64,000 nucleotides of DNA from Patescibacteria group bacterium (GTDB lineage: Bacteria > Patescibacteriota > Gracilibacteria > UBA4473), in NCBI GenBank assembly GCA_965660445.1, contig CBFIAK010000001.1:96001-160000 (forward strand), in the 5' to 3' direction. The notes beneath the pieces were generated by a model. It saw nothing but the letters and a program-made list of their open reading frames with translations. It searched no databases and was not told the origin of the DNA. Below, in pieces: positions 46,127 through 55,388 of the stretch (positions are counted from its first letter, which is position 1; each line of letters starts with the position of its first letter). Made by a program: the position numbers and the translations under genes.

Positions 46127-46155
46127 TTGACAAACAAAGACGTTCTTCCTACAAT
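46127..46155 (+). promoter_or_regulatory. rRNA promoter
   Basis: TTGACA-17 nt-TACAAT about 190 nt upstream of 16S. Confidence 0.8.
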
Positions 46156-46342
46156 CTCGTGGCTTTTGATAAAGAAGCATTTATTGAAGAAGCTCTTTTT
46201 CATTTCGAACGCAGCAAAAAAAACAAACATTTTTTTGTGTTAAAAAACATTACAGATAATTCTGTGAGATAACAAAACAAGTACGTATGCATTAATTATT
46301 CCAATGCATACATAGTTAGAAGAAAAATTTTCTTTAAAAATA

Positions 46343-47830
<1,488 letters not shown>

Positions 47831-47990
47831 CCAGAAGGCTCAAGGTATTCCGACGTCTTTCTTAATTTGTCGGAGAAAAGCAATAGTTTCTTTTTTCGGA
47901 AATGTTGTTCTATTGTGTAAATCCCTTTAGGTCACTGCGTTCGAAGTGAAAGAGAGTTTTCTTTATATAAAAAAACTCAGAATTCAAACC

Positions 47991-48025
47991 AAAAAAATCA
48001 CAAAGTGTTACTTTGTGATTTTTTT
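47991..48025 (+). terminator. Intrinsic terminator after 16S
   Basis: AAAAAAATCACAAAGT-gtt-ACTTTGTGATTTTTTT. Confidence 0.8.
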
Positions 48026-48075
48026 GTGATTCCTAATTCATACTTTTAAATCTCTGATATTGAAGATAAAAAATA

Positions 48076-48455
48076 GAGACCGGTCTCTGTTTTAAGAAAA
48101 AGGAACAATCATAAGGCTGTGCACCACCTTGTGATTCCTGCGCTTCTTGCGATTTTACCAAGATTCAAGATTCCAGATTCTCATTTAGATTCTAGATTCT
48201 AAAACAATATTATAAAATGATTTCAAAAAAACAAAAAAACGCACAACAAAGCCAAAAGTTGGAGACCGGTCTCTAACTTTTGGCTTAAATAAAGCATTCG
48301 GCATGTCAAATTCCCAAGCTTCTATTATTTTTTAATCTATACCTGCTCAAAATGGAGACCGGTCTCTGTTTTAAGAAATAAGGAAAAATCATAAGGCTGT
48401 GCACCACCTTGTGATTCCTGCGCTTCTTGCAATTTTACCAAGGTTCAAGATTCCA
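48076..48455. repeat. Two ~100-bp direct repeats and a 38-bp palindrome, all containing GAGACCGGTCTC
   Basis: Copies at 48076-48175 and 48355-48455; palindrome at 48249-48286. Confidence 0.85.
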
Positions 48456-51641: not shown

Positions 51642-51732
51642 CAGTTTGTATTGTAATTAAATTTTAAAAATTGCAAATCGAAAGAGTGGTTCTTGAATTT
51701 TTTTTTGTTTTTATCACAATAGGCGTGATTTC

Positions 51733-52788
51733 ATGATTATTCAATCTCTTTCTTCGGTACGAAATACAATAAACCAGATACTCCACTCTCCATTTGGACT
51801 GCAGTTGAGCATCCTTTCGCTTTTTGTTTTGTTTTTAACCAGTTTTCAACCGACATACTTTTTTTGGAATAAAACACCGTTCGGAGACAGTTTGTTTTTT
51901 CAACAAGAACGAATATTCACCATTACAGAAACTGGATTTATTGATAATTTTGCACAAGTTCAAAACACAGGGATTCAAGAAATAACAACCGATGAAGACG
52001 GTAACTTAGTCGCACAAAGAAAACCAAGAAACACCACAAAAGCTCTTGATTACACCGTCAAATCAGGAGACACTCTTTTAAAAATTAGTCATAAATTTGG
52101 TCTGAATGTCTCAACGCTGTTATGGTCAAACAATCTTACTATTAAAGAAACGATAACTCCCGGACAAATACTCACTATTCCTCCTGCTGATGGCGTTTAT
52201 TACACCGTAGAATTGGGAGACACATTAAGTGAAATCGCACAATTACATGATATTAGAGTGCAAGACATCTATCAATATAACGATTTAAATAATGAAGGGA
52301 CTATTCATAGAGGAAAAGAATTATTCTTACCCGATGCAAAAAAGATTTATATTGAACACACACCGTTTCAATCACCGATTCGAAGTGTTGCTTCCGCTCC
52401 ACCAACACTTTCTTCTACGGGACTCAAACTCAAAAAACCAACAACGGGTATCATAACACAAGGGGTTCACGCCGGACACACCGCAATAGATATTGCCAAT
52501 AGTATGAATACGCCTATTTATTCAGCACAAGCTGGAAAAGTTGTCACCGCTGCAGGAGGGTGGAATTATGGATACGGAAATCATGTTATTATTGATCATG
52601 GAAACAATATCCAAACACTTTATGCCCATTTAAATAGTTATAACGTGAAAGTAGGACAACAAATAAAAACTGGTGAACTCATTGGAAAAATGGGAAATAG
52701 TGGAAACGTGATCGGCCCGACAGGAATTCATTTGCATTTTGAAGTCCGAATCAATGGACGAAAAATGAATCCGAATAATTATTTCTAA
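51733..52788 (+). CDS. LysM x2 + M23 peptidase
   Basis: YTVKSGDTL, YTVELGDTL, HTAID, YAHL, HLHFEV. Confidence 0.92.
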   Translation: MIIQSLSSVRNTINQILHSPFGLQLSILSLFVLFLTSFQPTYFFWNKTPFGDSLFFQQERIFTITETGFIDNFAQVQNTGIQEITTDEDGNLVAQRKPRNTTKALDYTVKSGDTLLKISHKFGLNVSTLLWSNNLTIKETITPGQILTIPPADGVYYTVELGDTLSEIAQLHDIRVQDIYQYNDLNNEGTIHRGKELFLPDAKKIYIEHTPFQSPIRSVASAPPTLSSTGLKLKKPTTGIITQGVHAGHTAIDIANSMNTPIYSAQAGKVVTAAGGWNYGYGNHVIIDHGNNIQTLYAHLNSYNVKVGQQIKTGELIGKMGNSGNVIGPTGIHLHFEVRINGRKMNPNNYF

Positions 52789-54390: not shown

Positions 54391-54425
54391 ACACAGACTT
54401 TTTTTTTATTTCCTAACCCTTTCTC

Positions 54426-54971
54426 ATGGCCATTACAAAAAGCAAGAAAGCAGAGCAACTCGCAGAACTAGAAGCACAATTCAAGTCTGCACAAGGGATT
54501 GCATTTGCTGAATGCACTCGGTTAACGGTTGATGAGGCACAATCGGTTCGTCGAGAACTGCGAGAAAAGGGCATGACTTATAAGGTCATCAAAAAAACTC
54601 TTATTGCTTTAGCAGCAAAAAATACAGGAGTTGCTGAATTCTCGGTAGACGACTTATCAGGATCAGTATCAGTTATTGTGTCATCATCAGATGAAATTGC
54701 ACCCGCAGCAGCGATTAAAAAATTCAAAAAAGATTTTTTTAACAAAGCGACAAAGGAATCCAAAATGGATTTTGCTGGATGTATTTTCAATGGGATGTTT
54801 CAAAACGCAGCACAAACAGCTGTTATCGCAGAAACTCCAACTCGAGAAGAATCTCTTGGTAGAATTGTTGGAATGCTCAAGAGTGGACCTCAAAAAATTC
54901 ATGGAGTTCTCAATTCAGGATTCCGAAAACTCCACAATGTGTTGGAGAACGCAGAAAAATTTGCGTCTTAG
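54426..54971 (+). CDS. rplJ: 50S ribosomal protein L10
   Basis: MAITKSKK, LTV, YKVIKKTL, TPTREE. Confidence 0.93.
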   Translation: MAITKSKKAEQLAELEAQFKSAQGIAFAECTRLTVDEAQSVRRELREKGMTYKVIKKTLIALAAKNTGVAEFSVDDLSGSVSVIVSSSDEIAPAAAIKKFKKDFFNKATKESKMDFAGCIFNGMFQNAAQTAVIAETPTREESLGRIVGMLKSGPQKIHGVLNSGFRKLHNVLENAEKFAS

Positions 54972-55001
54972 TTTTCTTTTATTTTTTAATTTATTTTTAT
55001 C

Positions 55002-55388
55002 ATGTCAGATACAGAAGTAACTCTTTCAAAAAACGAACAATCGGTTGTTGATGCAATCGAAAAACTAACCGTTGTTGAAGCAAACAACGTAGCAAAATAC
55101 TTTGAAGAAAAGTATGGTATTACCGCAGCTGCACCAGTAGCTGTTGCTGCAGCTCCTGCTGCAGAAGAAGCAGAAGAAAAAACATCATTTAATGTCGTAC
55201 TTAAAGACTGTGGATCTCAAAAAATTGCTGTTATTAAAGTTGTACGAGAAGTAACAGGGCTCGGACTTGCAGAAGCAAAACAACTAGCAGAAGACGGTGG
55301 AAACATTAAAGAAAATGTTAAAAAAGAAGAAGCAGAAGAATTGAAGAAAAAATTCGAAGAAGCGGGTGCAAAAATCGAGTTAGCGTAA
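55002..55388 (+). CDS. rplL: 50S ribosomal protein L7/L12
   Basis: Ala hinge, [30 protein letters not shown]. Confidence 0.97.

Follow-up and report, generated by a model that had tools for sequence, protein, structure and literature searches.

A variant anti-Shine-Dalgarno sequence fixed in a family of candidate phyla radiation bacteria and lacking a cognate Shine-Dalgarno motif in the genome examined

Few stretches of the bacterial ribosome are as conserved as the anti-Shine-Dalgarno (anti-SD) sequence, and its natural exceptions reveal what constrains it when pairing with mRNAs is not used. The initial annotation of the locus described here had pointed to such an exception, a 16S rRNA tail devoid of the canonical anti-SD, and had proposed either that initiation is largely SD-independent or that an orthogonal SD complementary to the new tail serves a few genes. 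The locus thus raises the questions of whether the variant is genuine, what the mRNAs present to it, and what constrains such a tail.

A variant 16S rRNA tail fixed in a family

The window, which is the whole stretch of 64,000 nucleotides that was analysed (C1:96001-160000), harbours the single 16S rRNA gene of the genome on its forward strand, at 46344-47829 (Rfam RF00177, 1456 bits, model positions 1-1533). The gene ends in GGAUCAUCGCCUUUU. Beyond helix 45, the tail at 47816-47830 (forward strand) is GGATCATCGCCTTTT, and reading on to 47832 gives GGATCATCGCCTTTTCC for 47816-47832, where the reference of our alignment, the canonical form for most bacteria, has GGATCACCTCCTT. The CCUCC core of the anti-SD, which we take to be positions 1535-1539 in E. 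coli numbering, is replaced by UCGCC at 47822-47826 (forward strand), with C1535U at 47822 and U1537G at 47824. At the other end of the gene, 46344-46353 reads TTTAAGGAGAG, with a canonical AAGGAG at the very start of the rRNA.

The transcription unit itself appears ordinary. A promoter-like TTGACA-17-TACAAT site (11/12) is found at 46127-46155 (forward strand) by a consensus scan that gave 6 sites in the region for 4.7 expected. An inverted repeat, whose 5' leader arm (46190-46214, forward strand, 25 nt) is 88% complementary to a 3' trailer arm (47935-47959, forward strand), would form the leader-trailer processing helix of the pre-16S rRNA, and a perfect 17-bp palindrome (47990-48026, 100% complementary) with A and T runs on either side resembles a terminator. 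The 23S rRNA gene is located at C1:270317-273238, ~126 kb from the 16S gene and unlinked to it, and therefore the latter represents a transcription unit of its own.

The variant bases might stem from an error of assembly or binning, or from a chimaera, given that the genome is a metagenome-type assembly (991,330 bases in 5 contigs, 36-40% GC per contig and 36.7% overall, 100% complete, 0.74% contamination) and that rRNA genes are often misassembled. However, the 16S gene lies within an 828-kb contig, and a Logan DNA contig from run X1 (1411 bases, depth 17.7) is identical to it over positions 47400-48099, without a mismatch or a gap. As X1 may be the source sample, this match is not independent, and the independent evidence is comparative: the same G and a compensating base in the trailer (see below) are found in 27 other genomes of the family. 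An artefact is therefore hardly conceivable. Since the genome yields one 16S match only, it has no second copy bearing CCTCC or CCTCCT.

We scanned 43 genomes of the family, from 25 genera, and found the region to be assembled in 28 of them, from 19 genera. All 28 tails carry NCGCC, in the form of ACCGCC in 14 and of ATCGCC in the other 14, and the two forms mix even inside genera g19 and g20. The same 28 genomes match identically whether position 1537 is left open or fixed to G. A first look had revealed CGCC in 12/12 readable family tails, and CCTCC or other forms in other families of the class. The loss of the canonical anti-SD announced in the initial annotation is thus confirmed, both at 47822-47826 and in every assembled tail of the family.

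A class-wide pattern scan of 401 genomes gave matches in 166. The pattern demanded CC at positions 1538-1539, and forms such as CCUCU, found in G040 and G030, were left uncounted. The 127 matches listed from other families share T at position 1537 with 4 exceptions, by a hand count that leaves 24 unlisted matches aside. The listed exceptions are G in G211 and G330, and A in G337 and in the second copy of G049. Among the matches listed, G211 and G330, which belong to one genus of family f11, have ACGCC, and UCUCC tails (C1535U) are frequent in families f8, f22 and f30. Position 1535 is thus loose across the class, and G1537 marks the family, with one convergent case (family f11) among the matches listed. 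The class shows unusual variability of the anti-SD, with CCACC in G034 and in one G049 copy in addition to the CCUCU forms, and two differing 16S tails are present in each of G038, G046 and G049.

Scarcity of SD motifs and search for a cognate one

On the mRNA side, we defined 899 genes in a crude way, as stop-to-stop ORFs of at least 70 residues, selected greedily by length and starting at the first ATG, GTG or TTG, without a trained gene finder. Upstream of them, the sequence is rich in A and T, with G at ~10%, and shows no peak of purines. Canonical SD 5-mers precede 34 of the 899 first starts (3.8%). The corresponding shares are 1.6% for downstream candidate starts (42 of 2546) and 2.1% for in-frame start codons deep inside genes (208 of 9725). 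As the downstream candidates fall below the internal background, SDs hidden at mis-called starts are unlikely. More than 95% of the genes have AU-rich leaders lacking an SD, which supports the largely SD-independent initiation that had been proposed.

Start regions fold less than internal regions, with mean MFE values of -3.72 vs -5.86 kcal/mol (n=694). For 120 genes with a promoter-like site of at least 10/12, the distance from the end of the -10 hexamer to the start is 5-9 nt in 22 cases and 20-34 nt in 48 cases; this spacing, measured from predicted sites, gives at most a hint that leaderless and short-leader mRNAs occur side by side. A putative leaderless signature, TAnnnT/TAAT at -12 and -15, was set aside, as it has a 3-nt period and is at least partly an artefact of defining starts as the first after a stop. 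With genetic code 11, ORFs of at least 150 residues account for 92% of the genome. Codes 4 and 25, which are used by some Gracilibacteria, were rejected because TGA readthrough improves gene structure neither here nor in four relatives.

We also counted AGGAG in SD windows and mock windows of four relatives, using 400-kb samples. The counts are 8 vs 4 (384 genes) in G026, whose tail is the canonical CACCUCCUU, 3 vs 3 (344 genes) in G016 (ACCGCC), 11 vs 3 (366 genes) in G013 (AUCGCC) and 16 vs 3 (343 genes) in G040 (CCUCU). The relatives are equally SD-poor whatever their tail, the canonical one included, indicating that the loss of SDs preceded the change of the anti-SD.

A TAAC(C/T) motif peaks ~12-15 nt before starts across the class, in 400-kb samples of these four genomes and of the genome under study (G000). 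In G016, 15 instances of TAAC fall at -15, and in G040 another 15 fall at -14; the extended forms TAACC in G016 and TAACT in G040 reach 18 vs 1 and 26 vs 0 in mock windows, respectively. This motif could be a non-SD initiation signal or a promoter signal, and the stop codons inherent in the ORF definition may contribute part of it.

According to the second proposal, UCGCC pairs with AAGGCGA or GGCG upstream of a few genes, such as rpsU and rpsR. It has a precedent in Chryseobacterium, Riemerella and related Flavobacteriia, which harbour an alternative anti-SD, ASD2 (AUCUCAUU), with which the SD of rpsU covaries, according to the available text of Jha et al. (2021, PMC7797042). In our genome, it can draw on an AGGCG motif (51721-51725, forward strand) that lies 7 nt upstream of the ATG of a gene for an M23/LysM peptidase (51733-52788). 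The motif is present, as the initial annotation had reported, but as a signal it does not stand: it is the sole near-start case of AGGCG among the 899 genes, against 3-4 in mock windows, and we regard it as a chance occurrence. Similarly, SD windows of the 899 genes contain no AAGGCG (3 in mock windows), no GGCGA (1 in mock windows) and a single GGCGG (4 in mock windows). All 5-mers complementary to the native tail taken together are found at 2/899 first starts, 23/2546 downstream candidates and 99/9725 deep internal start codons. Duplexes with the native 12-mer tail reach -7 kcal/mol or below in 22 SD windows vs 56 mock windows, a depletion near starts. In the genome-wide comparison of AGGCG with AGGAG, which had been suggested as a check, AGGCG is found in 1 SD window vs 3 mock windows and AGGAG in 32 SD windows vs 3 mock windows (see below). 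No enrichment of GGCG was detected in G013 and G016 either, in 400-kb samples.

The two genes for which an orthogonal SD might be most expected do not have one. The probable bS21 gene (C1:541716-541922, positions 1492-1698 of locus L175) codes for a divergent protein of 68 residues that matches S21 models with 18-21 bits, below their cut-offs, and its leader consists of a near-consensus promoter, TTGACA-N17-TATAAA, followed by 12 nt to the ATG. The leader of rpsR, whose product matches bS18 with 59.7 bits, is T-rich. Neither gene is preceded by an SD, be it canonical or complementary to the native tail, and neither leader has a purine box, so that the parallel drawn earlier with Bacteroidia fails at rpsU and rpsR. 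As far as the available text of Jha et al. allows comparison, our case resembles the ASD2 Flavobacteriia in that an SD-poor lineage carries natural anti-SD substitutions, C1535U included. It differs from them in that the flavobacterial changes are at positions 1535 and 1539, whereas U1537G defines the present family, and in that rpsU and rpsR have no complementary SD, their leaders are T/A-rich rather than A-rich and the bS21 match is weak (21 bits). Among other translation genes, rplJ (54426-54971, forward strand, Pfam L10) and rplL (55002-55388, forward strand, Pfam L12) do have the leaders for which they had been cited, both T-rich and without SD (CCCTTTCTCATG at 54417-54428 and TTTATTTTTATCATG at 54990-55004, respectively). 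The genome also codes for a short bS1-like protein of 351 residues, which matches S1 models with ~200 bits, below the curated cut-offs. No SD cognate to the new tail exists in the mRNAs; the orthogonal-SD reading is refuted, and we leave it a very slim residual probability.

A predicted trailer hairpin and a residual set of AAGGAG-led genes

A hairpin between the end of the anti-SD and the beginning of the 3' trailer is predicted at 47824-47839 (forward strand, MFE -7.0 kcal/mol), in which GCCUUU (47824-47829, positions 1537-1542) pairs with GAAGGC (47834-47839) around a UCCA loop. As MAFFT left the 3' arms unaligned, tails were folded singly, as single-sequence MFE predictions on 23-nt pieces. 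Of 23 class genomes, 21 have the same predicted hairpin, involving positions 1537-1541, whereas folding gives none in the remaining two (G027 and G034). The pair at position 1537 is G-C in 12/12 family genomes and U-A in 9/11 genomes of other families, and additional pairs covary at positions 1539 (C-G or U-A), 1540 (U-A, A-U or U-G) and 1541 (U-A or C-G). Predicted energies range from -5.8 to -9.3 kcal/mol in the family and from -4.2 to -6.1 kcal/mol in the paired genomes of other families. The double change at position 1537 and its trailer partner shows that the variant is authentic and that the small stem is under selection. Precursors of SD-using bacteria, e.g. Bacillus, likewise contain a local hairpin of the anti-SD with the start of the trailer, which is trimmed away. 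On this account, we interpret the predicted hairpin as a probable structure for the processing of the pre-16S 3' end.

Alternatively, the hairpin might be kept in the mature 16S rRNA and hide the anti-SD, the double U1537G/A-to-C change then strengthening the mask. This would make it an RNA counterpart of the protein pocket of Bacteroidia: in the available text of Jha et al. (2021, PMC7797042), the anti-SD of Flavobacteriia is described as sequestered by bS21, bS18 and bS6, with bS18 contacting U1537 in F. johnsoniae. The wide occurrence of the hairpin in the class, its covariation at four positions, the equal or greater stability of the G-C hairpins of the family and the paucity of SDs even in the presence of a canonical tail are consistent with masking. 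Nevertheless, the absence of a predicted hairpin in G027 and G034 and the trimming of like hairpins in SD users argue against it, and we consider such masking to be unlikely. RNA runs X4 and X9 and DNA run X2 contained only conserved 16S parts of other organisms.

The one SD-like motif enriched near starts is canonical. AGGAG is placed at -14 to -10 in all 32 genes mentioned above, with none at -20 to -15 or at -9 to -7. With GGAGG included, ~34 of the 899 genes are boxed; both preceding positions are A in 32/34, and 5-10 nt separate the box from the start. The letter that follows AAGG near starts is A in 33 cases, C in 1, T in 2 and G in 1, and this bias indicates that the motif is AAGGAG itself and not just the AAGG that pairs with CCUU. 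The initial annotation had missed this small set of genes that still carry the canonical box. With the native tail (AAAGG:CCUUU), the AAGGAG leaders pair at a median of -5.45 kcal/mol, compared with -9.45 kcal/mol for a canonical-type tail (n=34). Pairing with CGCCUU leaves the preference for AAGGAG unexplained, and the persistence of GGAG opposite CGCC is a puzzle.

Nearly all of the boxed genes are orphans. No Pfam family above cut-off was found for 28 of the 34, and the other six correspond to FtsK, Por_Secre_tail, HAD, NhaA, an ABC ATPase and a beta-CASP nuclease. About a dozen have signal peptide-like or lipoprotein-like N-termini, as judged by eye. Homologues in the samples of the four relatives were found for 2/34 boxed genes vs 480/865 other genes (Fisher p = 2e-9), and the L064 family was detected in 0/200 other class genomes. 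An attempt to assess the conservation of AAGGAG between orthologues led nowhere for this reason. Recent foreign origin was also considered and is unsupported by composition: the GC3 of boxed genes (0.272 vs 0.268 for the others) is that of the rest of the genome, which does not give them the look of recent imports. Their total GC is 0.347 vs 0.372, and their codon usage is somewhat apart, as 4 of 500 matched sets reach it.

A second motif, GTTCTTT, is present within 120 nt upstream of 19/34 boxed genes vs 16/865 others; restricting the analysis to upstream gaps of at least 100 nt gives 14/25 vs 6/246 (p = 1e-12). A looser form of it, defined after the data had been seen, is found at SD-like genes in G040 (4/17 vs 6/326) and, weakly, in G013 (3/10 vs 20/356). 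The shared layout is GTTCTTT, often TTCAT, then AAAGGAG, 5-10 nt and the ATG, as seen, e.g., at C1:160426-161253 and C1:161451-162284, just past the end of the window, at C1:304029-305833, in C1:705593-819580 and at C4:5610-6657. Judging from these upstream motifs, the AAGGAG/GTTCTTT genes look like a species-specific, co-regulated set.

Two members of the set deserve mention on their own. An AAGGAG-led gene at C1:792838-793740 (L082) codes for a secreted protein with a Por_Secre_tail, a type IX secretion sorting domain (35.1 bits, cut-off 27), which is unexpected in a candidate phyla radiation genome. The beta-CASP/metallo-beta-lactamase nuclease has two paralogues, a family-wide one at C1:338795-339838 and an extra one with an AAGGAG box at C1:745779-747338. 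A full-length homologue of the extra copy was found in 1 of 42 family genomes (G255), where its leader is A-rich and without a box.

We searched for other molecules that might be connected with the boxes. CsrA (PF02599) was not found in the genome. ACCTCCTT was not above its reversed control (36 vs 78), and this weak test gives no sign of another CCUCC-bearing RNA. Rfam searches at E of at most 1 on two AAGGAG loci gave sub-threshold matches only.

The weaker pairing of AAGGAG with the native tail than with a canonical-type one, together with the coherence of the boxed genes as judged from GTTCTTT, might suggest that G1537 was selected to weaken this pairing, either to hold the orphan regulon at a low or conditional level of translation or to avoid SD-like pausing within genes. 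However, the AAGGAG set is not conserved, as G016 has the same G1537 and no AGGAG excess, and in G013 the boxes (GGAG or GGAGG) are not preceded by the AA that CCUU pairing needs. Moreover, the boxed genes are orphans, and an rRNA change as old as the family can hardly have been selected for species-specific genes. We thus find adaptive retuning doubtful. A composite reading, with the rewritten anti-SD (U1537G) locked in a mature 3'-terminal hairpin, a ribosome blind to mRNA pairing by an RNA-only mechanism and an orphan regulon read at GGAG boxes without Watson-Crick pairing to the 16S tail, seems improbable as well; reading of the boxes could then involve a tolerated A-G mismatch or an anti-SD-independent reader.

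Known systems and a likely course of events

The association of SD scarcity with a variant anti-SD has been described before in a few other lineages, and was reportedly also addressed by Lim et al. (2012). In the available text of Amin (2018, PMC6107228), organisms without a perfect anti-SD generally lack SDs, and variant SDs matching a variant anti-SD are absent. Table 4 of Estrada (2024, PMC10783764) assigns 'C. Peribacter riflensis' (Peregrinibacteria), SR1, Campbellbacteria and Wolfebacteria to a category of SD-scarce lineages lacking CCUCC, and this was the sole relevant paper that we found joining Shine-Dalgarno and Peribacter. As described in the accessible parts of these papers, such lineages resemble ours in having a variant core, few or no SDs, no matching SD and close relatives that share the variant. 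Unlike them, our case includes a trace across the family (28/28 tails, 19 genera), compensation in the trailer and residual AAGGAG boxes. The CGCC tail, its spread over a family and the trailer compensation were not found in the accessible parts of these papers, the supplements of which may list the Peribacter tail.

Other candidate phyla radiation bacteria provide a further parallel. In a subgroup of Parcubacteria, the anti-SD motif CCTCCT was undetected at the 16S 3' end, with a detection rate of 48% (Tsurumaki et al. 2022, PMC9297842). That case is similar to ours in the lack of a detected CCTCCT in candidate phyla radiation bacteria. It differs in that it concerns another lineage and that the available text of that paper gives no variant sequence, SD census or trailer covariation.

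The explanation that we favour, and hold to be probably correct, is that SDs were lost, that constraint on the anti-SD was relaxed in consequence, and that U1537G, matched in the hairpin, became fixed with no cognate SD arising. The organism is a Peribacteria/Gracilibacteria-type member of the candidate phyla radiation with a ~1-Mb genome of 36.7% GC and the standard genetic code. Ribosomes of the class would start nearly all mRNAs without SD-anti-SD pairing, on leaders that are AU-rich, weakly folded, and short or absent. As mRNA pairing would no longer constrain the anti-SD core, U1537G could be fixed in the ancestor of the family, with position 1535 then free to alternate between C and U; that relaxed selection caused the anti-SD change is what we infer from this order of events. 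Selection would have remained on the small hairpin of positions 1537-1541 with the first 3' trailer bases, presumably for processing of the pre-16S 3' end. Because the hairpin would be kept under selection, the U-to-G change would have been matched by an A-to-C change in the trailer.

Two observations count against this explanation. G1537, C1538 and C1539 are invariant over the 19 genera, while neighbouring positions vary, which indicates a constrained core rather than one that drifts freely. We attribute this constraint to the hairpin, although a function in the mature ribosome could account for it as well. The other is the set of ~34 genes with canonical AAGGAG boxes, whose preference for this sequence is not explained by pairing with CGCCUU.

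The case of this family thus points to a structure for rRNA 3'-end processing, and not to mRNA recognition, as the remaining constraint on the anti-SD. For the annotation of these genomes, gene finders and SD-based start prediction should assume neither GGAGG nor a GGCG complement. Two aspects merit further attention, the compensatory change in the trailer and the orphan set with AAGGAG and GTTCTTT, behind which may lie a co-regulated accessory programme of an uncultured symbiont lineage.
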